NCBI GenBank assembly: GCA_963700285.1
Contig: CAVOXA010000022.1
Location: forward strand, 224,001 to 288,000
Length of the DNA: 64,000 nucleotides
From: an uncultured Chloroflexia bacterium
GTDB taxonomy: Bacteria > Chloroflexota > Anaerolineae > JAAYZQ01
Reading direction: 5' to 3'
This document shows, one piece after another, positions 37,857-56,556 of this stretch. Under the pieces are notes generated by a model. That model searched no databases, had not been told where the DNA came from, and saw nothing but the letters and a program-made list of their open reading frames with translations. The position numbers and the translations under genes were made by a program. Each line of letters begins with the position of its first letter. Position 1 is the first letter of the stretch.

Positions 37857-37885
37857 TTGACCTCTGCTTGTGGACATGGTACAAT
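37857..37885 (+). promoter_or_regulatory. Sigma70-type promoter of the DUF2294 gene
   Basis: TTGACC-17 bp-TACAAT with extended TG; conserved in the duplicate at 48791-48819. Confidence 0.75.
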
Positions 37886-37941: not shown

Positions 37942-38316
37942 ATGTCTCTTACCCAAACCAAAGGCCAGTTGGAGGCCAAGATCGCCACGGCCATCACACA
38001 GTTTGACCGGGAGCACCTGGGGCGTGGCCCTCACAAGGTCCGCGCCTGGATCATCCAGGACATGATCCTGCTCCGTCTCCAGGGCGTCCTAACCCCTGCC
38101 GAAGAGACACTGGCCCGGGATCCGGAGGGGCACCGCTTAATCAAGGAGGTTCGTCGGCGGTTGGTCGAGGGTTCTCGTCCCCTGCTCGGTGATATGATCG
38201 AGGGCCTTTCCGGGGTTGAAGTGGTCAGCTTGCACAGCGACATGAGCATCAAGAAGGGCGAACGGATCATTGTCTTTACCCTGGCCGAAGATCTGGAGGC
38301 CAAGTTCAAACGGTAG
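37942..38316 (+). CDS. DUF2294 (MpsC-like) protein
   Basis: TKGQLE..I..F.REHLGRGP..V...DMIL.RL.GVLTPAE..L...G..LIK..R..L....SLHSD.S...GERIIVFTL. Confidence 0.88.
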   Translation: MSLTQTKGQLEAKIATAITQFDREHLGRGPHKVRAWIIQDMILLRLQGVLTPAEETLARDPEGHRLIKEVRRRLVEGSRPLLGDMIEGLSGVEVVSLHSDMSIKKGERIIVFTLAEDLEAKFKR

Positions 38317-38511: not shown

Positions 38512-38540
38512 TTGACAAGCAAAGATTCCTGTGCTAGACT
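38512..38540 (+). promoter_or_regulatory. Sigma70 promoter of ion-transport operon 1
   Basis: TTGACA-17 bp-TAGACT with extended TGn; identical boxes at 49337-49365. Confidence 0.85.
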
Positions 38541-38566
38541 CCGGCCAGTCACATAGGATACAGTTT

Positions 38567-38664
38567 GGCAGGTAGGGTGGAAGGTAAGCTCGTGGCATAC
38601 GAGCAGACCAGCCACTGGGTAGGCCAACACCGCACCCTGAAAGGGTAGCTGGCGTTGGCCTTTT
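38567..38664 (+). ncRNA. Candidate riboswitch/attenuator copy 1 with overlapping intrinsic terminator
   Basis: GGTG..CACC outer stem, GCTCGT/ACGAGC hairpin, conserved GTAGGCCAAC, terminator GGCCAAC..GTTGGCC-TTTT. Confidence 0.7.
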
Positions 38665-38690
38665 AAGTTTCACGTTGACCCGAGATGGAC

Positions 38691-38790
38691 CGGCAGACGC
38701 GGCGGTAGTTAGGCCCTTCGCACAAGGGCGGAGCAGCCGTAGCGTGGGCCAACGCCGAACCTCAAGGGCGTACCAGCTGTTGCCCCTTTA
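38691..38790 (+). ncRNA. Candidate riboswitch/attenuator copy 2
   Basis: Compensatory GGCG..CGCC and GCCCTT/AAGGGC stems, GTGGGCCAAC; weaker terminator GTTGCCCC-TTT. Confidence 0.65.
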
Positions 38791-38823
38791 TCTATACCAC
38801 CCAGGTGGTGGGAGGAAACCATC

Positions 38824-39168
38824 GTGCCGAATGCTGATAGCCAAGACATACATACAGACCTGGCACATGCCCTCCAGGAGTACTGGGGCGAGTATACAGG
38901 TATCCGCCCCACCCGTGTCCGGGTGGTTTCCGGTGAAGGGGCCATTGTGGTGTGGTTGGAAAATGTCCTGTCCCCGGCCGAACGACAGATGTCCAGTACC
39001 CCGGCGGGTCGCAAGGTGCTGCGGGATCTTGAGGAGCGCATCGTGGAGCAGGCAAGGCCCCAGATGCAGCGCCTGGTGGAAGCCGCCGTGGGGCAGGAAA
39101 GCGCTCCGGCCAGAGTCCTTCTCGATGTCGAGAATGGAAGCGTTCTGGGGTTCTTCCAACTGGCCTGA
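38824..39168 (+). CDS. Divergent DUF2294-like protein
   Basis: Aligns by eye with 37942-38316 (G.RP..VRV....I...L.NVLSPAE......G..V); SD GGAGG. Confidence 0.75.
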   Translation: MPNADSQDIHTDLAHALQEYWGEYTGIRPTRVRVVSGEGAIVVWLENVLSPAERQMSSTPAGRKVLRDLEERIVEQARPQMQRLVEAAVGQESAPARVLLDVENGSVLGFFQLA

Positions 39169-39234
39169 TCGGATGGGGGATGGGGCCCGGAAAGTCGTCA
39201 AGATTGTGAAATCTGAAAGGGGTTGAGGAAAGCG

Positions 39235-40113
39235 ATGTTCTACCTGTTGATTGTCATTCTGGATGATTTGAGGCTCATGCCTGAGCTGCTTCGGGTCTGG
39301 AAATCGATCGGCGTTCCGGGAGCAACCATCCTGGCAAGCGCTGGGGCCCACCGCACGAGTACCTGGCTCAGTCGCGTGGGTCTGGGGGCCATCGATCGCC
39401 TCTTTGAGGCTGAAGAAGTACGCCGGCGCACACTCCTGGTCGCAATTGAGGGCGACGACCTGCTGGCTCAGGCTATAGCCGAGGCCGAGCGAGTGGTGGG
39501 CGGGTTTGACCGGCCCGACAGTGGCCTGCTGCTGGTCTTGCCCATGGCCCAGGTCAGAGGATTGCACAAAGTCCAGCCCAAGCCTCGCCAGGACAAACTG
39601 CCTCCCGCGGTACGCCCGGACTGGGTGGTCCAGCGAGATACACCGATACAGGTCGTCGTTGACACCCTGAATCTGGAGCCGACGCTTGTTCGCCTCGACA
39701 CGCCCTTGGACGAGGTAGTTCAGGCCATGCTTGCCCACCCCAGGGTACACACGGCTTGCGTGCTGAACGACGACGGGCGATTGGTGGGGGTGCTCGATCT
39801 GCGCACGCTGGCCGACGACTTCTTTTTTCATCTCATGCCCGAAGAGTTCCTGAGCGAGATTACCGACCTGGAGCATGCGATGGCCTTTGCCGCGAGAAGC
39901 GGCATGCGCACCGCCGCCGACGCCATGCAGGCGCCGGTGTGGGTAAAGAACGGGCGGACGGTAAAGGATGCTTTCAAGCGCATGCACGAGCACAATCTGC
40001 AGGGATTGCCCGTGGTGGACGATCGCTACCATGTCACAGGCTATATCAACCTGTTGGAACTGATGGCCTGCTGCCTGGAGCCTTTGGCAGGCAACGCGGA
40101 GGTGAAGTCGTGA
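39235..40113 (+). CDS. P-II-like domain fused to a CBS pair
   Basis: N-terminus (VILDD...W..IGVPGATIL.S.G...RTL......G.FD.PDSGLL.V.P..QV.GL) is paralogous to 50974-51336; C-terminal CBS motifs (VLNDDGRLVGVL, LPVVDD...GYI). Confidence 0.8.
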   Translation: MFYLLIVILDDLRLMPELLRVWKSIGVPGATILASAGAHRTSTWLSRVGLGAIDRLFEAEEVRRRTLLVAIEGDDLLAQAIAEAERVVGGFDRPDSGLLLVLPMAQVRGLHKVQPKPRQDKLPPAVRPDWVVQRDTPIQVVVDTLNLEPTLVRLDTPLDEVVQAMLAHPRVHTACVLNDDGRLVGVLDLRTLADDFFFHLMPEEFLSEITDLEHAMAFAARSGMRTAADAMQAPVWVKNGRTVKDAFKRMHEHNLQGLPVVDDRYHVTGYINLLELMACCLEPLAGNAEVKS

Positions 40114-41372
40114 ACCCCGTGTGGCTGGCTGGCGGCGTCTTTTTGATTACCTACGCCCTGATCGTTACCGAACGGGTGCACCGCACCGTGTCGGCTCTGC
40201 TGGGCGGCGTGGCCGTGATTCTCCTGGGCGTGCTCTCCCAGGATGAGGCGTTTCACGCCATAGACTGGAACGTGATTTTTCTGCTGCTGGGCATGATGGT
40301 CATCGCCAGCGTGCTGCAGCAAACCGGCCTCTTTCAATGGGTCGCTATCCAAGCTGTCAAGTCGGGGCAAGGCGATCCCTTCCGCATCCTGGTCATTCTC
40401 TCCGCAGTGACCGCTGCCTCTTCGGCGCTCCTGGACAACGTGACCATCGTTATCTTGGCTGCCCCGGTGGCCTTGTTCGTGGCGGCCAGTCTCAGGGTGA
40501 ACCCACTGCCCTTTCTCATTGCCACGATCCTGGCGTCCAATATCGGTGGTACTGCGACCCTCGTCGGCGATCCGCCCAACATCCTCATCGGCAGTGCGGC
40601 CGGAATAGACTTTCTGACCTTCGCTGCTAATCTGACCCCGATCAGTCTGCTGATCTTGTTCCTCTTTCTCGGGCTGTGTTGGTTTCTGTTCAGGAGCGAT
40701 CTGCGAACTGCGCAGAGTGGCGCGTTGGATATCGACGCCCTGGAGACAGAGGCGCTGATCACAGACAGATCGCTGCTACGCAAAGCGTTGGTCGTCATGG
40801 CCGGCGTGATCGTGGGCTTTCTCATGCACGGGACGCTTCATCTGGAACCGGCGACCATCGCTCTGGCCGGCGCCACGATCCTACTCCTGTGGGGGCGGAG
40901 CGATCCGCATCACGTCCTGCGAGAGGTCGAGTGGACGACCCTCATCTTCTTTATCGGTCTGTTCATCATTGTGGAAGCCGTGGTACAGGTGGGGATCATC
41001 GAGGCCGTGGCCGAGGCATTGCTGCGCCTGACCGGTGGTAACCTCCAAGTGACCTCGATGCTGCTCCTGTGGTTCTCGGCTTTTGCTTCGGGCATCGTGG
41101 ACAATATCCCCTATACGGCAACCATGATTCCCATCGTGGAGAACCTGGGGCAGAGCATGCCGGTAATGCCCCTATGGTGGTCGCTGGCATTGGGGGCTTG
41201 CCTGGGAGGCAACGCCACCCTGGTGGGCGCCGCAGCGAACGTGGTGGTGGCGAACCTGGCCGAGAAGAGTGGCCATCCCATCAGTTTCAGACGCTTCCTG
41301 GGCTACGGCCTGGCGACCACCGCGATGTCGCTGTTGCTGGCGACGGGGTACGTGTGGCTGCGCTATCTGTGA
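40110..41372 (+). CDS. ArsB/NhaD (ion transporter superfamily, SLC13-like) permease
   Basis: IDWNVIFLLLGMM, SALLDNVT, ASNIGGTATLVGDPPN, SGIVDNIP, LGGNATLVGAAAN. Confidence 0.9.
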   Translation: MNPVWLAGGVFLITYALIVTERVHRTVSALLGGVAVILLGVLSQDEAFHAIDWNVIFLLLGMMVIASVLQQTGLFQWVAIQAVKSGQGDPFRILVILSAVTAASSALLDNVTIVILAAPVALFVAASLRVNPLPFLIATILASNIGGTATLVGDPPNILIGSAAGIDFLTFAANLTPISLLILFLFLGLCWFLFRSDLRTAQSGALDIDALETEALITDRSLLRKALVVMAGVIVGFLMHGTLHLEPATIALAGATILLLWGRSDPHHVLREVEWTTLIFFIGLFIIVEAVVQVGIIEAVAEALLRLTGGNLQVTSMLLLWFSAFASGIVDNIPYTATMIPIVENLGQSMPVMPLWWSLALGACLGGNATLVGAAANVVVANLAEKSGHPISFRRFLGYGLATTAMSLLLATGYVWLRYL

Positions 41373-41479
41373 ACAGGAGAGCAAGTCTAGATCTGCAGCA
41401 CTAGCCCAAGGCTGGTGCCGCAATGGCCATCCCGCCGATGGCCGCAGAGCCCTGCGCGGGCGGAAAGGAGGCTCGAGCT

Positions 41480-41923
41480 ATGTACAAGCGTGTTCTTTTG
41501 CCCCTGGACGGATCACCTCTGGCCGAACAAGCGCTGCCCCATGCCATCGCCCAGGCCAGAAACTCTCAAGCAGAGTTGGTCCTGCTGAGAGTCGTAGAAC
41601 CATTTGACCGCGGCACAGGCTTATCGCTGGCGGCCCATGAGCGGCTAAACGAACAGGCGGCGATCTGGGCTCGCGAGTACCTGGAACCCATCGCTGCTGA
41701 CGTTCAACAGCAAGGTATTCGGGTTCAGGTGGTCATCGTCGAGGGGCGCCCTCATGTACAGATCGCTGAATTCGCGGAGGGCAATCAGGTGGATCTGATT
41801 GTAATCTCTGCACGCGGGAAATCTGGACTCAGCCGCTGGCTGATGGGCAGCGTCGCCGATCGCATTGTGCGTGGAGCCACGGTGCCGGTGCTGTTGGTGC
41901 GCGCCCTGAAGGAAGAGGCTTAA
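41480..41923 (+). CDS. Universal stress protein (single domain)
   Basis: YKRVLLPLDGS..AEQAL, DLIVISARG.SG..RW.MGSVADRIVR.A..PVLLV. Confidence 0.92.
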   Translation: MYKRVLLPLDGSPLAEQALPHAIAQARNSQAELVLLRVVEPFDRGTGLSLAAHERLNEQAAIWAREYLEPIAADVQQQGIRVQVVIVEGRPHVQIAEFAEGNQVDLIVISARGKSGLSRWLMGSVADRIVRGATVPVLLVRALKEEA

Positions 41924-41940
41924 AGAGTGAGGAGGTGGTT

Positions 41941-43008
41941 GTGCAACGATTCAAGAACATTCTTGTGGTCGTTGATGAGAAAACTGAAAACAGGGTAGTC
42001 GTCGAACGGGCCGTGACCCTGGCTCAGCGAAACCAGGCTCGCCTGACGGTCGTCGACACCGTCAGAGACCTGCCCCGCCTGGTGCCCGTTCCAAAAGGCC
42101 CTGAGCCACTCGTCGACATCGACATTGTCGAGGAATGGCCCCCCGATGCGGACCGACCAGCCGCGCTGGAGCCGCCGGTGACTCTCAGCGAACAGCCCTA
42201 CGAAGCTCAGGCAGCGGCTGCAGAGGTGGCTGTGGTGATTCGGGAGCGTATCGTCGAGGAAGAGAGCCAGCGTCTGGAGCAGTGGCTAGACTTCATCCGA
42301 CGGAGAGGAGTTCCGGCTGACGGCAAGATGTTGTATGGAACGGCGTTTCTCGAGATCATCCGCGAGGTGTTGCGCAACGGGCATGACCTGGTGATGACCG
42401 CCGCCGAGGGCCGCGCCGCCGTGAAAGACAGGCTTTTTGGCAGCACAACCATGCACCTGATGCGCAAGTGCCCGTGTCCGGTGTGGGTAGTCAAGCCCGC
42501 CCAGCCCGAATGGCATACCCGCATCCTGGCCGCAGTGGATCCGTACTCTGCGGACGAGGAAAGGCACGCCCTCAATATCAAGATCATGGACCTGGCGACA
42601 GCGCTGGCCCGTCGGCAGCAGTGCGAACTGCTTGTCGTCCACACCTGGGCCTTTCCGGCTGAGTATTCCCTGAGAAGCGGGCATCTCGTGGCGTCAAGCG
42701 AGCTGGACAGGTGGGTCGGTGCGGACCGAGATTTGCGCAGGATCAGGCTTTCCGAGCTTGTGCAGCCGTACGCTTCGCAGGACCTAAAGTCTCAAGTGTA
42801 CATGTTGAAGGGCGAGCCGGGATACTTGATTCCCGAGGTAGCAGCAAAGATGGAGGCAGAACTGATCGTCATGGGTACGGTGAGCCGCACCGGGGTGGCC
42901 GGATTACTCATTGGCAACACCGCCGAAAGGATCCTCCGCCAAGTGGACTGTTCCGTGCTGGCGGTCAAACCTGATGGCTTCGTTACCCCAGTCACGTTGG
43001 ATGAATAG
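41941..43008 (+). CDS. Tandem-domain universal stress protein (UspE-like)
   Basis: FKNILVVVD, LFGSTTMHLMRKCPCPVWVVK, LIVMGTVSRTGVAGLLIGNTAE.IL. Confidence 0.92.
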   Translation: MQRFKNILVVVDEKTENRVVVERAVTLAQRNQARLTVVDTVRDLPRLVPVPKGPEPLVDIDIVEEWPPDADRPAALEPPVTLSEQPYEAQAAAAEVAVVIRERIVEEESQRLEQWLDFIRRRGVPADGKMLYGTAFLEIIREVLRNGHDLVMTAAEGRAAVKDRLFGSTTMHLMRKCPCPVWVVKPAQPEWHTRILAAVDPYSADEERHALNIKIMDLATALARRQQCELLVVHTWAFPAEYSLRSGHLVASSELDRWVGADRDLRRIRLSELVQPYASQDLKSQVYMLKGEPGYLIPEVAAKMEAELIVMGTVSRTGVAGLLIGNTAERILRQVDCSVLAVKPDGFVTPVTLDE

Positions 43009-43093
43009 CCAAGACCTGTCAGGGTGGGAGCGTGGAACTATCACCGTGCCGTGAGGCTGCAACTCGACAATGAACCGTGGGAGATGCATCAAC

Positions 43094-45852
43094 ATGAAAC
43101 ATGGGCGACAACCGTGGACCTTGACAGCAAGCCAGGTCCTGGAGCTGCTCGACACCCCGCCCGAGACGGGGTTGAGTCAGGCCGAGGCCGCCCGCCGTCT
43201 GGTCGAGCATGGCCACAACGAGCTGGTCGGGAGTGGATTGAGAAACCCGTGGCGTATCCTGGCCACCCAGTTCATCGAGGTGATGGTCGTCGTCCTCATG
43301 GTGGCGGCCGCCATCTCACTCCTCGTCGGCGACTTCAAGGACGCCGTGGTCATCCTGATCATCGTCGTCCTCAACGCCGCGCTGGGCTTCACCCAGGAGT
43401 ACCGCGCCGAGCGGGCCATGGCTGCCCTGAAACAGATGGTCGTGCCCCAGATCAAGGGTGCGACGCGATGGACAGGTGTACGAGATATCGGCTCGCGGTC
43501 TGGTGCCGGGCGACTTGTTCCTGCTCGAAACCGGGGGCGCGGTGCCGGCCGACGGCCGCTTGCTGGAGAGTGTCAACCTGCGCCTGCAAGAGGCAGCCCT
43601 CACCGGCGAATCGGTGCCGGTCGAAAAAACGACTGAGGCCCTGGCCGGCGAGCATGCAGGCGTAGGCGACCGGCGCAACATGGTGTTCATGGGCACGGCT
43701 GTCACCTACGGGCGCGGGTTGGGCATCGTCACCGCCACCGGCATGGAGACCGAGCTGGGCCACATCGCCACCATGATCCAGGATGTAGAGGCCGAGCCAA
43801 CCCCCTTGCAGCGGCGCATGGCCCAATTGGGCAAGGGCCTGGCCGTGGCCGCCCTGGCCCTGGTGGGTCTCATCTTTGCCATTGGCCTGCTGCAAGGGAC
43901 GGACCTTACGACGATGTTCATGGTAGCCATCAGCCTGGCCGTGGCCGCCGTACCGGAGGGCCTGCCGGCCGTGGTTACCATCGCCCTGGCCTTGGGCGCC
44001 CAGCGAATGCTCAAGCGGCGCGCTCTCATCCGCAAGCTGCCGGCGGTGGAAACCCTGGGATCGGTCACGGTTATCTGCTCGGACAAGACCGGCACGCTGA
44101 CCGAGAACCGCATGACGGTGACCATTCTGGATGTGGCCGGGCATACGGTGGACCTGGTGGAGAAACTGCGCAAGTCCGGCCCCCTGCTCAGTCCCGACGA
44201 CACCCCGCTGGATACGCCCGAAGCGCCCCTGTCGCTGCTGCTGACGGCGACCGCTTTGTGCAATGACGCCATCCTGGAACCGGACGCAGAGCCCGGCGGC
44301 TACCGGGCCATCGGCGACCCTACCGAGGGGGCATTGGTGGTCGCCGCGGCGCGCATGGGCCTGTGGAAGGCAGACCTGGAGGCAGACCTGCCCCGCGTGG
44401 CCGAAGCGCCGTTCACCTCGGAGCGAAAACGCATGACGACGGTGCATCGGGGATTGCTAGATGGGAATGGTGCCCTATCTACCCGCCCACAGGGCATACC
44501 ACCATACCAGTATACCGCTTTCACCAAGGGCGCGGTGGATAGCCTGCTGGCGGTGAGCGATCGGGTGTGGGCCGACGGCCGGATCGAACCGCTGGACGGC
44601 GAGTGGCACCGTCGCATCGAGGCCGCCAACGACCGCCTGGCCCAGGAGGGGATGCGGGTACTGGGCGCCGCCTTCCGCCCGTTGGACGAACTGCCGGCCC
44701 CGGGCCACGAGGCAGAGCCTGGAGCAGGAGATGATCTTTGTCGGGCTGACCGGCATGATCGACCCGCCGCGGCCCGAGGTGCGCCAGGCCATCGACACCT
44801 GCCACACGGCCGGGATCCGCACGATGATGATCACCGGCGACCATCCCCTCACAGCGGCCAGCATCGCTCGCGAGTTGCGCATCGCCGACCCGGAGACGGG
44901 CAAGAACGGCACGCGCGTCGTCAGCGGCATGGAACTGGACCAGATGTCCGCGGCTGACCTGGAGGCGGTGGTGGATGAGGCGACGGTCTATGCCCGTGTC
45001 TCGCCGGAGCACAAGCTAAAGATCGTGGAGGCGCTGCAAGCCCACGGCCACATCGTGGCCATGACCGGCGATGGCGTGAACGACGCCCCGGCGCTCAAGC
45101 AGGCCGACATCGGCGTGGCCATGGGCATCACCGGCACCGACGTCAGCAAAGAGGCGGCCGACATGGTGCTGACCGACGACAACTTTGCCACCATCGTATC
45201 GGCCGTGGAGGAGGGCCGCACCATCTATGACAACATCCGCAAGTTCATCAAGTACACCCTCTCCAGCAACGTGGGCGAGATCGCGGCCATGCTCCTGGCC
45301 CTGCTCGCGGGTCTGCCCCTGCCCCTGACGGCGCTGCAGATCCTGTGGATCAACCTGGTGACTGACGGGCTGCCCGGACTGGCCCTGGGAGTGGAGCCCT
45401 CAGACCCGGATGTCATGGATCGCCCGCCCCACCATCCCCAGGAGAGCATCTTTGCCCGGGGCATGTGGCAGTATGTGCTCTGGGTGGGTGTCCTGATGGG
45501 CGTCATCGTCCTGGGCATCCAGTACGTGTTCTACCATGCCGGCAACCCAGCCTGGCAGACGATGGTCTTTACCACCCTCTGCCTGTCCCAGATGGGCAAC
45601 GCCCTGGCTATCCGTTCGGACAAGTACTCGCTCTTGGCCATCGGCCTCTTTTCCAACCCGGCGTTGGTGGGCGCGGTGCTGCTCACCTTTGGCCTGCAAA
45701 TGGCGGTGGTCTATGTGCCCTTCCTGCAGAACATCTTCAAGACGGTGGCCCTCAGCCCGCTGGAGCTGGCCATCTGCCTGGGTGCCAGTGCACTGGTCTT
45801 TTTGGCCGTCGAGGGGGTCAAGTGGATCAGGCGGCAGAGGGCCGGTCACTGA
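43094..45852 (+). CDS. Cation-transporting P-type ATPase, P2A-like (frameshifts near 43455 and 44715)
   Basis: [47 protein letters not shown]. Confidence 0.92.
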
Positions 45853-45891
45853 CGGGGCGATTCAGCCCGTACATTCTTGAGGAGATAACCT

Positions 45892-46545
45892 ATGGATATC
45901 TTGCATGACCTGATCGCGTGGACCACAAGTTGGGCCGATAGTCCCTACGGCGGGCTAGCACTGTTTGTCATCGCCTTTGCCGAATCATCGTTTTTTCCGG
46001 TGCCGCCGGATGCATTGTTGATCCCTCTGGCACTGGCCAAGACCTCCTGGGCACTGCTATTCGCTGTCGTAGCTACGGTCGGCTCGACGGTTGGTGGTAT
46101 CCTGGGCTTTTGCATCGGCGACAAGGGGGGACGCCCGTTTCTTCAACGCTTCTTCAAGCCGGAAAAAGTCGCCCTGGTGCAAGGCTATTACCGGCGCTAC
46201 GACGTATGGGCAGTGGGTATGGCCGGCTTCACTCCCATTCCCTACAAGCTCTTTTCCATCTCGGCGGGAGCGTTCGGGTTGGACCTCAAGCGATTCGTTC
46301 TGGCCTCAATCGTGGGGCGGGGAGGGCGTTTCTTCCTCGTAGGATTGGCGATCCTGTTCTTTGGCGAGTCGGTGAAGGCATTTCTCGACGAGTACTTTGA
46401 CCTGGCGCTGGTGGCCTTTGCTGTGCTGTTCATCGGCGGCTTCTATGCCATCAACCTACTTGCCCGGCGAGGAGCGCGCCAGGAAGAGCAGGTTTCTCCA
46501 CCACCGGCCAGCGGCCCTCCCTTTTCCTCAGCGAGGGAAGACTAG
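45892..46545 (+). CDS. DedA/YqaA (SNARE-associated) membrane protein
   Basis: AFAESSFFPVPPD, AGFTPIPYK.F, GRGGRF. Confidence 0.9.
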   Translation: MDILHDLIAWTTSWADSPYGGLALFVIAFAESSFFPVPPDALLIPLALAKTSWALLFAVVATVGSTVGGILGFCIGDKGGRPFLQRFFKPEKVALVQGYYRRYDVWAVGMAGFTPIPYKLFSISAGAFGLDLKRFVLASIVGRGGRFFLVGLAILFFGESVKAFLDEYFDLALVAFAVLFIGGFYAINLLARRGARQEEQVSPPPASGPPFSSARED

Positions 46546-46581
46546 ACCCGCCGTTGCACCGCCACAAAGAGGGGAATCGAT

Positions 46582-47844
46582 TTGGAAAGCTGGCTGAGCA
46601 ATCTATCACTGGAATTGTGGCAAAAGTTCGCTCTGGCCGCACTCATTGGACTCATGGTGGGCCTGGAACGAGAACACTCGCAGCAGGAGGAGACAGCCCA
46701 CTTTGCCGGCATCCGAACCTTTCCGCTGATCGCCCTGCTCGGCTGTACCGCCGCGCTGCTATCCGCGGAAGGACAATCCTGGCTTTTTGCCGTCGGCTTT
46801 GCCGGGTTGGCGGCTCTCGTCGTGACCGTGTACGCTTTTTCTGTCCAGCACGGCAACCTGGGGGTTACGACCGAGGCTGTCGTGCTTTTGGTCTATCTGA
46901 TTGGCGGGATGATCTATTGGGATCAGATCTGGCTCGCTATCGCGCTGGGCATAGTAGTCACGGTCTTGCTGGTCTTGCGCCCTACCCTGCACAAGCTGGT
47001 GGATCGCATCGATCGAGAGGATATCTATGCGGCCCTCAAGCTGGCGGTGGTCAGCGCTGTTGTTTTGCCACTTCTTCCCAACGAGGCCTACGGCCCTCTA
47101 AACGTACTCAATCCCTTTCGCATCTGGCTGATGGTCGTGTTTGTATCAGCGGTCAGCTTCTCGGGCTATATCGGCATCAAACTACTGGGCCCGCGAAAGG
47201 GTGTAGGGTTCGCGGGTTTGCTGGGAGGGTTGATCTCCAGTACAGCGGTGACCTTGGGTTTTTCCCAACGCAGCAGGGAAACGCCATCTCTGGGGCCGTA
47301 TCTTGCCTTGGGTATTACGTTGGCCTCCACCACCATGTACCCCATCATTGTTCTCCAGGTCCTGGCCTTCAACTCAACTCTGGCAGAACGGGTATGGCCG
47401 CCCATGGCTCTGCTCGCCGGTCTGGGCGCGGGAAGCTGTATCATCCTCTGGCGGATTGCAGGCTCGGGAGAAACAGAAAGCACGGACTTTGCCAACCCTT
47501 TTCGCCTCTGGCCAGCGATCCAATTCGGGCTGCTTTTTGGGGTTGTGCTATTGGTGACAAAAGCGGCACAGGTTGCCTTGGGCGACGTCGGTGTCTACGT
47601 AGCCAGTTTCCTGGCTGGCCTGACCGGCCTGGATGCGATCACACTCTCGATGGCCCAACTGGCGGGCAGCGAGGTCTCCTACCAGGTGGCGACTCAGGCG
47701 CTTCTTCTGGCAACTGTGGCCAATACTCTGGCCAAAGGTGGCCTGGTCCTCGCCCTCGGTGCGCCAGCGTTGCGCCGCAGCACGCTTCCGGTGTTCGGCC
47801 TTTTGTCCTTGGCTGGCCTGGGCCTGGCCGTTTGGCTGTCCTGA
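46582..47844 (+). CDS. MgtC/SapB family protein with DUF4010-type C-terminus
   Basis: IGL.VGLERE, AGIRTF.LI.LLG, G.TTE, GGLISSTAVT, GLTGLDAIT; TTG start. Confidence 0.88.
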   Translation: MESWLSNLSLELWQKFALAALIGLMVGLEREHSQQEETAHFAGIRTFPLIALLGCTAALLSAEGQSWLFAVGFAGLAALVVTVYAFSVQHGNLGVTTEAVVLLVYLIGGMIYWDQIWLAIALGIVVTVLLVLRPTLHKLVDRIDREDIYAALKLAVVSAVVLPLLPNEAYGPLNVLNPFRIWLMVVFVSAVSFSGYIGIKLLGPRKGVGFAGLLGGLISSTAVTLGFSQRSRETPSLGPYLALGITLASTTMYPIIVLQVLAFNSTLAERVWPPMALLAGLGAGSCIILWRIAGSGETESTDFANPFRLWPAIQFGLLFGVVLLVTKAAQVALGDVGVYVASFLAGLTGLDAITLSMAQLAGSEVSYQVATQALLLATVANTLAKGGLVLALGAPALRRSTLPVFGLLSLAGLGLAVWLS

Positions 47845-47879
47845 AGGCTGTCAGAGCAGCCATGCGAACCACGGGAGCT

Positions 47880-48010
47880 AGTCCAGAAGTGCGCCAAGCG
47901 GGTCAACCTTTTAGGGGAGTTCAATGACTGGGATACCATGTCAACACCTATGACTCGCAAGCGGGCCGATGCCAATTGGAAAGCGATCGTCGAACCGGAA
48001 ACCGGCTGGC
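47880..48010 (+). pseudogene. Fragment of a CBM48/isoamylase early-set domain
   Basis: Manual translation VNLLGEFNDWDTMSTPMTRKRADANWKAIVE; no complete gene around it. Confidence 0.6.
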
Positions 48011-48460
48011 TGTCCTGGCCGAATATTCTCATCCGTTCTAGAAAAACGACCCATACCGTCGTTCCGTGGTAGAGAAGTAGGCTGCGATGGTGACTCGTGC
48101 TTTATATCACACGACAAGGCCACGGTCAAGACTCTTGGGCATCTCGCAGTGTGTCCATTTCGGTGGAAACTCCTGTGGCACGGATCGCCCCGGGCCAAAG
48201 TCGCAGAGCCACGGAGCGGTGCCGGTTCAAACCGGCTGAAATGCAGCAACCGACCTCGCCGGTATCGTCTCGCGCCCTGGGCTTTTAGACGACATAGATA
48301 AGGTTAGGTTGGGTTCTGCACCACCTAGAGCTGCGCGTGAGGCGGTTCTGTGGTAGACTATGTACCAGTGTTCCACTGGCGGGTCCGCGGTCCACAAGCT
48401 GGGCAAAGAAGAGCTTGCTATCAAAGAGTCGACCGGGCATACCAGCGAGAGGAGAGGAAG

Positions 48461-48768
48461 ATGGCGGAACAACCGAAGGGGCCGTACAACATCCTATTCG
48501 TACTCACGGACTAGGAACGGCATTTCGACGAGTACCCCGAGGGCGTGGAGCGCCCTGCCCTCCAGCGCTTGCAGGCCATGGGCACCACCTTCACCAACCA
48601 CCAGATCTGCAGCGCCGTGTGCACGTCATCTCGGTCGAATATCTTTGCCGGTCAGCACATCGTGCACTCGGGCATGTTCGACAACACCAACTTTGCCTGG
48701 CAGGGCAACCTGTCGACCGAGGTCCCGACCATGGGCCACCGCATGCGCCAGGCGGGCTACTATCAGCG
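48461..48768 (+). pseudogene. Sulfatase N-terminal fragment with in-frame TAG
   Basis: YNILFVLTD*ER (TAG at 48512), SAVCTSSRS active-site motif, PTMG..M.QAGYY; truncated at the edge of the duplicated cassette. Confidence 0.8.
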
Positions 48769-48790
48769 CCGGTTAGTGGTCGCGGTTTCT

Positions 48791-48819
48791 TTGACCTCTG
48801 CGTGTGGGCATGGTACAAT
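48791..48819 (+). promoter_or_regulatory. Sigma70-type promoter (duplicate)
   Basis: TTGACC-17 bp-TACAAT. Confidence 0.72.
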
Positions 48820-48875
48820 GACCGGGCCGCATATCCGTAGCAGACTTCTTACGATCCCTTGAGCGAGGCGCAGAT

Positions 48876-49250
48876 ATGTCTCCTACCCAAACCAAAGGCC
48901 AGTTGGAGTCCAAGATCGCCACGGCCATCACCCAGTTTGACCGAGAGCACCTGGGGCGCGGCCCTCATAAGGTGCGCGCCTGGATCATCCAGGACATGAT
49001 CCTGCTCCGTCTCCAGGGAGTCCTTACCCCAGCCGAATAGACACTGGCCCGGGACCCGGAGGGGCATCGCCTGATCAAGGAGGTTCGCAAGCAGTTGATC
49101 GAGGGTTCTCGCCCCCTGTTCGATGATATGATCGAGTGCCTTTCCGGGGTTCGCGTGGTCAGCTTGCACAGCGACATGAGCATCAAGCAGGGCGAACGGA
49201 TCATCGTCTTCACGCTGGCCGAAGACCTGGAGTCCCAGTTCACGCCCTAA
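48876..49250 (+). pseudogene. Second DUF2294 copy with a nonsense codon
   Basis: Same length as and near-identical to 37942-38316; GAG to TAG at 49038-49040. Confidence 0.85.
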
Positions 49251-49336
49251 TGCAGGCGACGCCGCCATCTTTCCATTCTGGTATCCGTCGCCCAGTCTGC
49301 TGGGCGATCCTCCCGTAGGTTCTGGATGACTTGCCT

Positions 49337-49365
49337 TTGACAAGCGGCGATTCTTGTGCTAGACT
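49337..49365 (+). promoter_or_regulatory. Sigma70 promoter of ion-transport operon 2
   Basis: TTGACA-17 bp-TAGACT with extended TGn. Confidence 0.85.
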
Positions 49366-49390
49366 ACGATTAGTCAGATAGGACACAGCT

Positions 49391-49492
49391 TGGCAGGCAG
49401 GGTGGAAGGTAAGCTCTAGGAACAAGAGCAGACCAGCCGCTGGGTAGGCCAACACCGCAGCCTGAAAGGGTAGCTGGGAGTTGGCCTTTTTT
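49391..49492 (+). ncRNA. Candidate riboswitch/attenuator copy 3 with terminator
   Basis: GGTG..CACC, GCTCT/AGAGC, GTAGGCCAAC, GTTGGCC-TTTTTT. Confidence 0.7.
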
Positions 49493-49517
49493 AGTCTCGC
49501 GTTGACCAGATACTGAC

Positions 49518-49620
49518 CGGCAGATAAGGTGGAAGCTAGGCCCTTGCCACAAAGGCAGACCAGCTGTAGCGTAGGCCAGCACCGCACCCTCTTGAGGGTG
49601 CCGGCTGTTGGCCTTTTTTT
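49518..49620 (+). ncRNA. Candidate riboswitch/attenuator copy 4 with terminator
   Basis: GGTG..CACC, GCC(C)TT/AA(A)GGC, GTAGGCCAGC, GCACCCTC/GAGGGTGC, GTTGGCC-T7. Confidence 0.7.
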
Positions 49621-49738
49621 CTATACCCGGGTGATGAGTTGTGTGGGAGCCCAGAAAGTCGTAAAGCATGCTTCCTGTTGGGTGCTGGTGGTACGGTGAG
49701 AGAAAGGCCGGTTCACAAATGAGAAGGATCCAGGCCTG

Positions 49739-50956
49739 ATGCTTCCATTCTTGCAGTTTATCTTTGCCATCGCCATCATCATCGCTGCCGCAAAGGCGGG
49801 CGGCTACCTGAGTCACCGATTGAGGCAACCCGCGGTTGTAGGTGAAGTGCTCGCCGGCCTGATACTGGGGCCTTCGGTACTGAATTTCCTGCAGTGGTCC
49901 ATATTTACCAACCCACACCTGGGCGAGAGTATCGTCTATCTCGCGGAGCTGGGTGTCTTGTTGCTGATGTTCATTGCCGGTCTTAACCTCCATCTCTCCG
50001 ATCTGGCAGAATCGGGCAAAGTTGCTCTACTGGCCGGTAGTCTGGGGTTCGCATTTACCCTGGGATTGGGGTTCCTCCTGGCAATGGCCTTCTCTTTTGA
50101 TCCCCGGCAGGCCCTGTTTCTGGGCTTGCTCCTGGCTCCAACCAGCATTGGCATTTCAGCCCAAACCCTGATAGAACTCAAGGTGTTGCGCACCAGAGTG
50201 GGAGTCAGCCTCCTGGGTGCAGCAGTAGTTGATGATTCCTTGGCAGTGTTGGGCGTGTCCGTGTTTCTTGCTCTATTGGGAAGCGGAGCCACGGATGGCC
50301 TGGCAAGTGGAATCTTGGTTCTGGTGAGAATGACGCTGTACCTGGTCGTTGCTTCCGCCCTGGGCATCTGGCTGGTTCCGAAATTGAGCCGTATCGCAGA
50401 GAAGCTGCCGGTCAGCCAGGGGCTCATCGCCTTTGTGTTTGTCACGGTGTTGCTGTACGCCTGGGCGGCCCAAGTACTGGGCGGGATGGCGGCGATCATC
50501 GGTGCGTTCATGGCCGGCCTCTTCCTGGCGCGCTGCCCGCTCAGGCAGCGCATCGAAGTCGGATTCGCACCTCTGGTCTATGGCATATTTGTGCCCATCT
50601 TTTTCGTCAGTGTTGGCCTCTCGGCCAATCTTCGCCAGATCACTGCTAGCGGTATTGTGCTCGTTGTTGCCTTGTGCCTTGTGGTCATCCTGACCAAACT
50701 GCTCGGGGCCGGTCTTTCTGGTCTTATCGGAGGAATGAGAGGTCAGGAAATCCTGCAACTGGGCTTCGGAATGATACCCCGTGGGGAGGTGACGCTGATT
50801 GTCGCCACCGTGGGAGTCACGGAAGGCTTGATCGGGGTGGAGATCTTTTCGGTCGTGGTTGGGATAGTAATCGTATCCGTGTTGCTGACGCCTCTGTTGT
50901 TGCGGCGCGCGTTCGCCCGGCCCGCGGCACCCAACCTGCACCTGCAGGGTTCCTAA
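49739..50956 (+). CDS. Cation:proton antiporter (CPA2, NapA/KefB-like)
   Basis: QPAVVGEVLAGLILGPS, AELGV.LLMF.AG, TSIGIS, AAVVDD, PIFFVSVG, GMIPRGEV. Confidence 0.92.
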   Translation: MLPFLQFIFAIAIIIAAAKAGGYLSHRLRQPAVVGEVLAGLILGPSVLNFLQWSIFTNPHLGESIVYLAELGVLLLMFIAGLNLHLSDLAESGKVALLAGSLGFAFTLGLGFLLAMAFSFDPRQALFLGLLLAPTSIGISAQTLIELKVLRTRVGVSLLGAAVVDDSLAVLGVSVFLALLGSGATDGLASGILVLVRMTLYLVVASALGIWLVPKLSRIAEKLPVSQGLIAFVFVTVLLYAWAAQVLGGMAAIIGAFMAGLFLARCPLRQRIEVGFAPLVYGIFVPIFFVSVGLSANLRQITASGIVLVVALCLVVILTKLLGAGLSGLIGGMRGQEILQLGFGMIPRGEVTLIVATVGVTEGLIGVEIFSVVVGIVIVSVLLTPLLLRRAFARPAAPNLHLQGS

Positions 50957-50973
50957 TAAACAAGGAGATGTGC

Positions 50974-51336
50974 ATGGCTCATTTGGTCGTGTTGGTACTA
51001 GATGATCCGGACCGATGTCGAGACGTGTTGGATGCCTGGGAGGCGGCAGGCGCGCCAGGGGTCACGATTCTGGATAGCTCAGGCTTGGGCCGGGTGCGCC
51101 AGGCGGGCATACGAGATGATATGCCGCTCTTGCCCAGCTTGAGCGATCTGTTCCGACGTCAAGAGGATTGTCACCGGACCCTGTTCTCTGTAGTCAAGGA
51201 ACAGTCTCAGGTAGAGGCCATCGCCCAGGCAACCCAAGCAATCATCGGTGAACTCGACCGTGGACACACAGGCCTGCTGTTCGTCGTCCCGGTCGGCCAG
51301 GTCTACGGACTGAACAAGAAAAGGGAGAGCGATTGA
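50974..51336 (+). CDS. Stand-alone P-II-like protein
   Basis: LVLDD....VLDAW..AGAPGVTILDS.G...HRTLFSVV....IG.LD..HTGLLFV.PV.QVYGL; SD AGGAG. Confidence 0.8.
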   Translation: MAHLVVLVLDDPDRCRDVLDAWEAAGAPGVTILDSSGLGRVRQAGIRDDMPLLPSLSDLFRRQEDCHRTLFSVVKEQSQVEAIAQATQAIIGELDRGHTGLLFVVPVGQVYGLNKKRESD

Positions 51337-51345
51337 TCTACACGC

Positions 51346-51472
51346 GTGTTCGGGCGCCCTCGCGCGAGTATGACCCGGTCTGCAGAAGCAAACGAGGTAG
51401 CGCTGATCGTTTTGTCCACTCGCGGGCGATCTGGCTCCAGCCACTGGCTGATGGGCAGCGTGGCCGATCGTA
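51346..51472 (+). pseudogene. Remnant of a single-domain USP
   Basis: AEANEVALIVLSTRGRSG.SHWLMGSVADR matches the C-terminal half of 41480-41923. Confidence 0.7.
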
Positions 51473-51537
51473 AGGAGTGCTGCACTACATTCGGTTGCCG
51501 ACCAGGCAGGGAGGGTGATCATAAAGAGGAGGACATT

Positions 51538-52605
51538 GTGCAACGCTTCAAAGATATTCTTGTAGTCGTTGATGAGAAAACTGAGAACAGGCCGGTCGTC
51601 GAACGGGCCGTGACCCTGGCTCAGCGAAACCAGGCTCGCCTGACGGTCGTCGACACCGTCAGAGAACTGCCCCGCCTGGCGCCCGTGCCGGATGTCCCTG
51701 AGCCACTCGTCGACATCGACATTGTCGAGAAATGGCCCCCCGATGCGGACAGACCAGCCGCGGTGGAGCCGCCGGTGATGCTCAGCGACCAGCCCTACGA
51801 AGCGCAGGTACCGGCTGTAGAGGTGGGTGTGGTGATTCGGGAGCGTATTGTCGAGGAAGAGAGCCAGCGTCTGGAGCAGTGGCTAGACTTTATCCGGCAA
51901 AGAGGAGTCCCGGCTGGCGGCAAGATGTTGTACGGCACGGCGTTTCTCGAGATCATCCGCGAGGTGTTGCGCAACGGACATGACCTGGTGATGACCGCTG
52001 CGGAGGCCCGCGCCGCCGTGAAAGACAGGCTTTTTGGCAGCACAGCCATGCACCTGATGCGCAAGTGCCCGTGTCCGGTGTGGGTAGTCAAGCCCACCCA
52101 GCCCGAAACGCATACCCGCATCCTGGCCGCAGTCGATCCGTACCCTGCGGACGAGGAAAGGCACGCCCTCAATATCAAGATCATGGACCTGGCGACAGTG
52201 CTGGCCCGCCGGCAGCAGTACGAACTGCTCGTTGTACACACCTGGACCTTTCCCGCTGAGCATTCCTTGGGAAGCGGGTATCTCGTGGCGTCAAGCGAGC
52301 TGGACAGGTGGGTCCGTATGGACCGAGATTTGCGCAAGATCAGGCTTGCCGAGCTTGTGCGGCCCTACGTTTCGCAGGACCTAAAGTCTCAAGTGTACAT
52401 GTTGAAGGGCGAGCCGGGATACTTGATTCCCGAGGTAGCAGCAAAGATGGAGGTAGGACTGATCGTCATGGGTACGGTGAGCCGCACCGGGGTGGCCGGA
52501 TTGCTCATTGGCAACACCGCCGAGAGGATCCTCCGCCAGGTGGACTGTTCCGTGCTGGCGGTCAAGCCTGATGGCTTCGTTAGCCCTGTGATGTTGGACG
52601 AATAG
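51538..52605 (+). CDS. Tandem-domain universal stress protein, near-identical paralog of 41941-43008
   Basis: Colinear, highly similar protein and DNA; SD GAGGAGG. Confidence 0.92.
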   Translation: MQRFKDILVVVDEKTENRPVVERAVTLAQRNQARLTVVDTVRELPRLAPVPDVPEPLVDIDIVEKWPPDADRPAAVEPPVMLSDQPYEAQVPAVEVGVVIRERIVEEESQRLEQWLDFIRQRGVPAGGKMLYGTAFLEIIREVLRNGHDLVMTAAEARAAVKDRLFGSTAMHLMRKCPCPVWVVKPTQPETHTRILAAVDPYPADEERHALNIKIMDLATVLARRQQYELLVVHTWTFPAEHSLGSGYLVASSELDRWVRMDRDLRKIRLAELVRPYVSQDLKSQVYMLKGEPGYLIPEVAAKMEVGLIVMGTVSRTGVAGLLIGNTAERILRQVDCSVLAVKPDGFVSPVMLDE

Positions 52606-55617: not shown

Positions 55618-56556
55618 CGTTCGTAGTCGGCGATTCAGCGCCGTAAGTAAGTGCGATGAATCGCGCACTACGAACGGGGCGATACCAGGCGAGCAACCGT
55701 TCGTAGTCGGCGATTCATCGCCGTAAGAAAGCGCGATGAATCGCGCACTACGAACGGTACTGTGGCGGGCGCGAAACTGTTCGTAGTCGGCGATTCATCG
55801 CCGTAAGAAGGCGCGATGAATCGCGCACTACGAACGGGGCGATACCAGGTGAGCAACCGTTCGTAGTCGGCGATTCATCGCCGTAAGAAAGCGCGATGAA
55901 TCGCGCACTACGAACGGGGCGATACCAGGTGAGCAACTGTTCGTAGTCGGCGATTCATCGCCGCAAGAAAGCGCGATGAATCGCGCACTACGAACGGTAC
56001 TGTGCCGGGCGCGAAACTGTTCGTAGTCGGCGATTCATCGCCGTAAGAAAGCGCGATGAATCGCGCACTACGAACGGGGCGATACCAGGTGAGCAACCGT
56101 TCGTAGTCGGCGATTCATCGCCGTAAGAAAGCGCGATGAATCGCGCACTACGAACGGGGCGATATCAGGTGAGCAACTGTTCGTAGTCGGCGATTCATCG
56201 CCGTAGGAAAGCGCGATGAATCGCGCACTACGAACGGGGCGATACCTGGCGAGCAACCGTTCGTAGTCGGCGATTCATCGCCGCAAGAAAGCGCGATGAA
56301 TCGCGCACTACGAACGGGGTGATACCAGGTGAGCAACCGTTCGTAGTCGGCGATTCATCGACGTAGGAAAGCGCGATGAATCGCGCACTACGAACGGGGC
56401 GATACCAGGTGAGCAACCGTTCGTAGTCGGCGATTCATCGCCGTAGGAAAGCGCGATGAATCGCGCACTACGAACGGTACTGTGGCGGGCGCGAAACTGT
56501 TCGTAGTCGGCGATTCATCGCCGCAAGAAAGCGCGATGAATCGCGCACTACGAACG
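55618..56556. repeat. Tandem array of 12 x 80-bp inverted REP doublets (REPIN/BIME-like)
   Basis: Unit GTTCGTAGTCGGCGATTCATCGCCG-taagaaa-GCGCGATGAATCGCGCACTACGAAC starts every 80 bp from 55618 to 56498; only two linker classes. Confidence 0.95.

Follow-up and report, generated by a model that had tools for sequence, protein, structure and literature searches.

Tandem hairpin-terminator leader RNAs behind mpsC (DUF2294) genes in a Chloroflexota bacterium, and MpsC as their candidate antiterminator

The 64-kb stretch of DNA analysed in this work (the window) comes from the 7.05 Mb genome of an uncultured Chloroflexota bacterium. It carries four copies of a structured RNA in two tandem pairs, leaders A and B, which lie ahead of ion-transport operons. 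The copies start, at a shared GGCAG, at positions 38567, 38692, 49392 and 49519; a first-pass annotation had described the two pairs correctly and had placed three of the four starts 1 nucleotide (nt) away. Mean column identity of the four copies is 80%, and a profile search of the whole genome recovers only these four (E 6e-30 to 2e-26, the next match having E 2.9). Each pair lies about 25 nt behind a TTGACA-17-TAGACT promoter-like site with a TG extension. The promoter search gave one site per leader region against 0.1-0.2 expected, in agreement with the consensus promoter annotated earlier (positions in Table 1). Absent from that annotation is an mpsC (DUF2294) gene, here called mpsC-a, that lies directly upstream of each RNA pair. 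The two pairs are one duplicated module of mpsC, promoter and two RNAs (81-87% identical), and the four copies are therefore not independent samples. The first gene behind pair A is a divergent mpsC paralogue, mpsC-b.

Each unit is predicted to form one long irregular hairpin. From the base it consists of P1 (GGC/GCC), an AG/AG loop, P2 (RY/RY), a 3x3 loop and P3 (GYGG/CCRY), followed by an AR/AG loop, P4, another AR/AG loop and P5, with purine-rich internal loops repeated along its length. Among 13 close copies 95.5% of cells pair, with both-side changes in 6 of 17 pairs. Over 46 diverse copies the figures are 87.6% and 14 of 17, and slid-alignment controls for this pairing reach only 21-46%. 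The hairpin base covaries over the 46 copies, by a shuffle control that takes no account of kinship, and the distal-stem exchanges proposed earlier (GCTCGT/ACGAGC, GCCCTT/AAGGGC and GCTCT/AGAGC) are present in the alignment. A GGTG/CACC helix, also proposed as part of the conserved fold, was rejected in favour of the long hairpin, in which GGYGG pairs with CCRY: it pairs in 65.8% of cells as against 87.6%, and one of its four pairs fails in 34 of the 46 rows. A small 3' hairpin like P2 of the nhaA-I motif was rejected by eye on the alignment.

What is conserved over phyla is the hairpin base only, GG-H-R-G-RY paired with RY-R-R-G-CC. Within these roughly 14 nt, all 46 copies agree at G3, G4 and G7 and at the G and the last C of GCC. 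As a strict regular expression this core is unspecific at genome scale, with 45 other matches in the window's genome. The distal stem is about 30 nt long in Bacillota-type loci and reaches about 170 nt in one genome (G050), where a copy before a phosphoenolpyruvate (PEP) carboxykinase gene (L168:720-960) has about 130 extra nt of branched structure in that stem.

The 3' strand of the hairpin, RGCCRRY, is also the left arm of a predicted terminator. Hairpin base and terminator are mutually exclusive by computation, which upholds the earlier proposal of a conserved cis-regulatory RNA with ON-switch logic and agrees with the antiterminator principle of a hairpin exclusive with an intrinsic terminator, OFF by default. 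In 41 of 46 units the terminator is the more stable structure by computation (median gap 6.9 kcal/mol); its advantage over the hairpin is 9.8 kcal/mol in A1, 0.7 in A2, 4.8 in B1 and 11.1 in B2. The overlapping terminators annotated in both pairs are thus present in A1, B1 and B2. A2 has largely lost its own, at about -12 kcal/mol versus -22 to -30 for the other three; the counterpart of A2 in a same-genus genome (G001) has an intact terminator. The four copies are likely to be attenuators, that is, tandem hairpin-plus-terminator leaders.

The association with mpsC extends well beyond the window, and nearly every homologous locus has mpsC directly upstream on the same strand. In the class, represented by 151 genomes, Pfam family PF10057 (DUF2294) and our RNA model R2 each match 12 genomes, 11 of them shared. 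G050, which has MpsC and no R2 match, carries the core and terminator with the long insert. Counting it gives 12 genomes with both, one with the RNA only (G101) and 138 with neither; linkage is thus 12 of 13 RNA-positive genomes, although R2 was trained on many of these matches and related genomes are not independent. Among 23 genomes of the order, eight have both, two the RNA only (G002, with its leader at a contig end, and G015), one mpsC only, at a contig end, and 12 neither; G022 shows the b-type gene only, its leader being near a contig end. Five class matches of model R1 at 28.7-31.7 bits (including G023, G092, G093 and G126) were lost with R2, and the four inspected lack terminators. 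A pattern scan of the genome collection gave 31 stretches, nine of them genuine (Chloroflexota titles, at least 42 bits); the other 22 score at most 28 bits, and the five inspected are all without terminators.

The same link is found when the search starts from the protein. A protein-first set held 57 metagenome mpsC loci, several of them near-duplicates, of which six were dropped for having less than 180 nt downstream. Model R1, built before these loci were collected, matches 20 of the 20 with at least 60% identity and at least 180 nt downstream, and a relaxed pattern, drawn up after inspection of the 51 loci, matches 45 of 51 against 0 of 51 on the opposite strand. PF10057 occurs in 92 of 301 sampled Bacillota genomes. 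R2 matches 21 of the 30 best held-out Bacillota mpsC loci, none of which had been used in training, and all 20 inspected have the overlapping terminator. The strict core pattern matches seven of these 30 loci, but only two of 300 shuffled sequences and none of 20 control loci; it also matches behind mpsC in Acetoanaerobium noterae. In many Bacillota-type loci the mpsC stop codon is followed by the terminator at a distance of 50-110 nt. A further class-level sample was centred on an Oscillospiraceae genome. R2 matches 3 of 150 genomes there, two beside mpsC and a third, weakly (E 0.047), in a genome without it. mpsC is present in 9 of 151 genomes of this sample, and all five with a strong a-type gene have it adjoining the RNA or a by-eye variant.

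Some arrangements of gene and RNA depart from the usual order. At one locus (L099:2781-4293) three RNA units flank a single mpsC, one before and two after, which recalls pyrR leaders. At three others (L228:554-924, L232:756-1358 and L220:1307-1360) RNA units are opposite in strand to, or divergent from, mpsC, so that one mpsC would serve leaders in both directions. On an Anoxybacillus plasmid (NZ_CP015439.1, L250:6800-7500) mpsC lies directly before a sodium-dependent bicarbonate permease gene (sbtA), with hairpin- or terminator-like sequence on both sides.

In the window mpsC-a2 has an in-frame stop, possibly an error given the frameshifts elsewhere in the assembly, and in the same-genus genome it is the opposite mpsC-a copy that is broken. 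One intact mpsC-a per genome therefore stands beside two leader loci in the window's genome and three in its genus-mate, which fits a trans-acting factor.

For MpsC-a, AlphaFold predicts a confident alpha/beta domain (Table 1). Its conserved basic residues are K7, R28, R34, R45, K68, R71, R79 and R/K108, and it also keeps G27-R28-G29-P30 and a cluster of S96, H98, D100 and E107. MpsC-b is acidic (median isoelectric point, pI, 5.0), directly follows the leader at many Chloroflexota loci and is without six of the conserved a-type basic residues (K7, R28, R45, K68, R71 and R108). This loss suggests that MpsC-b is a candidate RNA-blind paralogue and feedback inhibitor. In one Clostridia-type protein a receiver domain carries MpsC as its sole output; at this locus (L183:1030-1830, genome G250) the RNA was not seen in 420 nt downstream. 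By Pfam the partner protein contains PF10057 alone, with no CAT/PRD, HutP or ANTAR domain. NCBIfam gave no match for MpsC, a PDB sequence search none below E 0.2, Foldseek nothing at E 0.001 and the ESM Atlas no usable match, and no mpsC relatives were found in viral contigs. Two metatranscriptome runs contain parts of mpsC in low-depth contigs and none of the leader, and are uninformative on termination.

Table 1. Features of the two leader regions and the operons behind them (window coordinates).
Feature	Position	Strand	Basis or remark
Promoter-like site of mpsC-a1 (TTGACC-17-TACAAT, TG extension)	37857..37885	+	kept in duplicate module
mpsC-a1 (DUF2294/YbcI, PF10057), intact, 124 amino acids, candidate antiterminator	37942..38316	+	Pfam E 4.7e-37; AlphaFold pLDDT (predicted local distance difference test) 94.7
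Promoter-like site, leader A (TTGACA-17-TAGACT)	38512..38540	+	motif search
RNA copy A1: hairpin 38567-38625, overlapping terminator 38621-38664	38565..38668	+	fold energies, terminator -25.9 kcal/mol, favoured by 9.8
RNA copy A2: hairpin 38692-38750, terminator 38746-38790 degenerate	38690..38793	+	fold energies
mpsC-b, divergent acidic paralogue, first gene behind leader A	38824..39168	+	Pfam E 5.7e-13
P-II-like N-terminal part and CBS domains (probable start 39235)	39223..40113	+	CBS by Pfam; P-II-like by similarity to 50674-51336 protein
CitMHS/ArsB-type ion transporter, open frame, probable start ~40110	39756..41372	+	domain searches
Two universal stress protein (Usp) genes	41423..43008	+	Pfam
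P-type (IIA-like) cation ATPase, three overlapping open frames (frameshifts)	43070..45852	+	domain searches
VTT/DedA membrane protein and MgtC/DUF4010 protein, possibly same operon	45892..47844	+	domain searches
Promoter-like site of mpsC-a2	48791..48819	+	motif search
mpsC-a2, 89% identical to a1, in-frame TAG at codon 55 (position 49038)	48876..49250	+	alignment with a1
Promoter-like site, leader B (TTGACA-17-TAGACT)	49337..49365	+	motif search
RNA copy B1: hairpin 49392-49450, terminator 49446-49493	49390..49496	+	fold energies
RNA copy B2: hairpin 49519-49577, terminator 49573-49620	49517..49624	+	fold energies
CPA2 cation/H+ antiporter 49739-50956, P-II-like in frame 50674-51336, Usp 51346-52605	49739..52605	+	domain searches

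The genes downstream of the leaders had been annotated as an NhaD/ArsB transporter with a P-type ATPase, and as a CPA2 operon. A CitMHS/ArsB-like transporter, the ATPase and the CPA2 antiporter are indeed found; NhaD itself was not matched. The overlapping frames in 43070-45852 and 49739-51336 are as expected of assembly frameshifts. The ion-transport block (39202-52605) is 96% identical to the same-genus genome (L166/L167), which has three leader loci with six RNA copies and further duplicated Usp/CitMHS segments. Elsewhere in the window, a unit of about 60 nt recurs at 80-160 nt spacing at 55859-56240, between a PRC-barrel gene and a family 4 glycosyl hydrolase gene, with four matches to a single place in a relative.

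In the window and close relatives, stacks of two or three RNA units stand before genes for CPA2 antiporters, CitMHS/ArsB transporters, proteins of the CBS and P-II-like kinds, and Usp. Where the unit is single, the genes behind it encode P-type ATPases, PEP carboxylase (two genomes), PEP carboxykinase (four), pyruvate:ferredoxin oxidoreductase and surface proteins. In Bacillota-type loci the gene behind the RNA is purE (eight loci), purK (two), purC (one) or one for DUF4914 (four), and a P-II protein with a Na+-pumping decarboxylase beta subunit is also found there. DUF4914 comes first behind the RNA (L112, L114, L121 and L131) in the place that PEP carboxykinase or PurE holds elsewhere, hinting at a role in carboxylation. 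PEP carboxylase, PEP carboxykinase, pyruvate:ferredoxin oxidoreductase and PurK/PurE use or release CO2 or bicarbonate, and the role of cation/H+ antiport is in controlling pH. As a common signal, inorganic carbon or pH would therefore be a better candidate than Na+ or Li+. A new ion- or pH-sensing class had been offered as an alternative identity for the RNA. A pH- or CO2-related signal is plausible, and a purely ion-sensing riboswitch is weakened both by the wider gene set (the carboxylating and decarboxylating enzymes above, PurE/K/C, DUF4914 and surface proteins) and by the very tight link to the upstream mpsC.

Our preferred explanation, to which we give a probability of roughly 0.6, is that MpsC binds the 14-nt core at the hairpin base and directly antiterminates. 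The leaders are likely stop-or-go switches held open by MpsC, rather than sodium or lithium riboswitches. By computation, the terminator would win for as long as the hairpin base stays unstabilised. MpsC-a would be made from its own upstream promoter and, once activated, would bind the base and let the polymerase read through. Two or three units in series would multiply the read-through probability, and such stacking should keep the antiporter, ATPase and Usp operons more tightly OFF and make their response steeper. With less assurance, the signal may be inorganic carbon in solution or, linked to it, the pH of the cytoplasm, and MpsC-b, as first gene of operon A, may be the feedback inhibitor that closes the loop. 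A broader proposal is tentative, and we would sooner bet against it than for it: that MpsC/DUF2294 proteins form a widespread, unrecognised family of antiterminators that bind RNA, sense CO2/bicarbonate or pH and control genes for carboxylases, for carbon uptake and for cation/H+ homeostasis as one regulon. In some Chloroflexota this switch would be made near-digital by two or three stacked attenuators and shut off by an RNA-blind, first-induced paralogue.

Several observations weigh against direct antitermination by MpsC. MpsC-a has a median pI of 6.2, hence it is no basic protein. A fold search gave no clear relative (best Z 7.2), and the match to the RbfA/type-II KH fold (Z 4.6-6.1; the best RbfA alignment has Z 6.1, a root-mean-square deviation of 3.7 and 88 aligned) is within background. 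Deletion of mpsC in Staphylococcus aureus left growth at atmospheric CO2 unaffected, according to the accessible part of the report (PMC6689103). Besides the training overlap and kinship noted for the class counts, 10 of the 30 Bacillota loci are without a convincing model match within 1.5 kb, one of them being a by-eye variant. The strict core also fails to match in the mpsA leader of Staphylococcus pettenkoferi (an mpsAB-mpsC operon) and at the Anoxybacillus mpsC-sbtA locus. In G015 (95% complete) promoter, hairpin and terminator are all intact ahead of a gene for a B12-binding domain, and mpsC was not found there by family, profile or DNA search, all of which detected their positive controls. 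In G101 (97% complete) the RNA hairpin keeps its pairs and mpsC, complete in its sister G059, is reduced to a short 5' remnant. The adjacency of gene and RNA could by itself result from their joint transfer as a cassette, and the surface-protein and B12-domain targets misfit a carbon or pH signal.

Some of these points would suit a new class of protein-free ON riboswitch for bicarbonate/CO2, protons or a cation, with mpsC as a helper or a co-regulated gene, which we regard as unlikely, though the least unlikely of the alternatives. The ON-switch architecture resembles that of Na+-I and Na+-II, and nhaA-I-type switches have been described in twos and threes ahead of cation transporters, so that stacking as such has precedent, as far as the accessible text of PMC9337991 (architecture) and PMC9646797 (both points) goes. 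The recurring purine-rich internal loops, the RNAs kept without mpsC in G015 and G101 and the CO2/pH theme common to the target genes point the same way. On the other hand, mpsC in Chloroflexota lies upstream of the leader promoter, so that the RNA does not regulate it, and is nevertheless linked in all but one of the RNA-positive class genomes. The conserved core seems very small if it were to bind a small molecule as an aptamer, and its variation follows the clades of MpsC: in a 44-row MpsC tree the change from GCC to TCC in the 3' core occurs solely within one well-supported clade of seven rows (98/91), a weak association in that kin share labels. Both orphans, too, give weak hints of relaxed termination (a hairpin at -17.9 in G101 versus -26.9 in its sister; a shorter U-run in G015). 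Full relaxation to ON in the copies without mpsC was considered and dropped as not robust, the outcome for G101 depending on the stretch folded. MpsC might instead act indirectly, by making, binding or sequestering the signal or by regulating promoter DNA, with another factor or metabolite binding the RNA. This would explain the linkage without a basic surface; conserved S96, H98, D100, S102 and E107 could form a ligand site, and the promoter between mpsC and leader is also conserved. We nonetheless judge it improbable: Bacillota-type loci often leave too little space between mpsC and the RNA to hold a promoter, and a second co-occurring gene was not seen in the loci inspected.

Very improbable, finally, is the first identity suggested for these RNAs, a distant tandem variant of the Na+-I (DUF1646), Li+-I (nhaA) or Na+-II riboswitches, even though the target genes in the window are similar and GGCC at the terminator base resembles the Na+-II construct. 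For the window, Rfam 15, including nhaA-II and c-di-AMP, gave no match at the gathering thresholds and none with E relaxed to 10; there was likewise none in 20 homologous loci at gathering and none in 10 loci at E up to 1. The RNA is outside Rfam; weak matches to GlsR17, MS2, cold-seep-1 and Six3os1 are far below cut-offs and were discarded. The genome-wide best for RF03071 (Na+-I; gathering 40.5 bits) is 15.8 bits, at another place, and RF03057 (nhaA-I, Li+-I / Na+-II; gathering 37 bits) exceeds its threshold in none of 31 genomes, with the window sites not among its matches. Hallmark strings were read from published construct supplements (PMC9337991, PMC9646797). The Na+-I combination of P1 GGTTG...CAAGA and P2 loop GGGT(GG/AA)GA was not found, the loop string occurring in 0 of 46 rows, and the sole Na+-I-type string in the window copies is one CAAGA in the variable stem of B1. 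AGGTT after P1 and the CGGGCCG P2 loop, typical of Li+-I / Na+-II, are absent from the four window copies and occur in 2 and 1 of the 46 rows. The RNA is, moreover, one hairpin and not P1 plus P2.

Direct antitermination by MpsC offers a testable function for a widespread orphan family, which is named after the mps operon of S. aureus although it showed no phenotype there, and suggests that inorganic carbon or pH is sensed at the level of RNA. A literature search found no description of the RNA, or of MpsC as a regulator, with supplements and subscription journals incompletely covered; DUF2294 came up in one unrelated paper, and the main texts of PMC11109978 and PMC8632094 contain no MpsC/YbcI term, an unnamed motif in their supplements being possible. 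Leader RNAs before ndhF/mpsA are listed, with no mechanism in the accessible parts of the sources, as ncr181 in Bacillus subtilis (PMC2965217) and as RsaX05 in S. aureus (PMC2790875). The Chloroflexota branch, the stacks of two or three copies and the ion-transport targets are new aspects. Whichever reading holds would be a novelty: one more kind of antiterminator protein together with its RNA, or a riboswitch for bicarbonate or pH. The locus is also well suited to experiment, with short units, natural single, double and triple versions, the weakened A2 and a candidate inhibitor paralogue, and the two genomes without mpsC (G015 and G101) are natural controls.

Among known systems, the ribonucleic antiterminator (RAT) shares the irregular hairpin shape of the RNA described here. 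In the BglG/SacY/LicT systems, as described in the accessible part of PMC12591593, the 3' arm overlaps the leader terminator, the default is OFF and the regulator is encoded in or beside the operon, all of which is the same here. Those regulators have CAT/PRD domains, whereas MpsC has neither and our RNA is unmatched in Rfam; their targets are sugar genes, whereas here they concern ion and carbon homeostasis, with two or three full units in series. HutP offers a parallel in gene order: a small alpha/beta regulator gene is followed by its terminator, between hutP and hutH (PMC12591593, accessible part), as in Bacillota-type mpsC loci. HutP, however, binds single-stranded NAG repeats as a hexamer, whereas the conserved part here is a paired hairpin base, and it is not among the MpsC fold matches listed. 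The ANTAR proteins AmiR and EutV also antiterminate at the RNA level, a receiver-domain fusion is seen for MpsC as well, and AmiC as the negative partner parallels the role proposed for MpsC-b. ANTAR is helical and binds twin small hairpins; MpsC, in contrast, is a predicted alpha/beta domain and its RNA is one long hairpin. The Na+-I (RF03071), Li+-I (RF03057) and Na+-II riboswitches likewise combine ON-switching by terminator overlap, transporter genes downstream and tandem cases. They differ in sequence and fold and have a narrower target set, and the accessible text of PMC9337991 and PMC9646797 reports no obligate protein neighbour, where the present RNA has mpsC. By analogy, then, the mpsC leaders would work like the RAT/BglG, HutP and ANTAR systems while belonging to none of those families.

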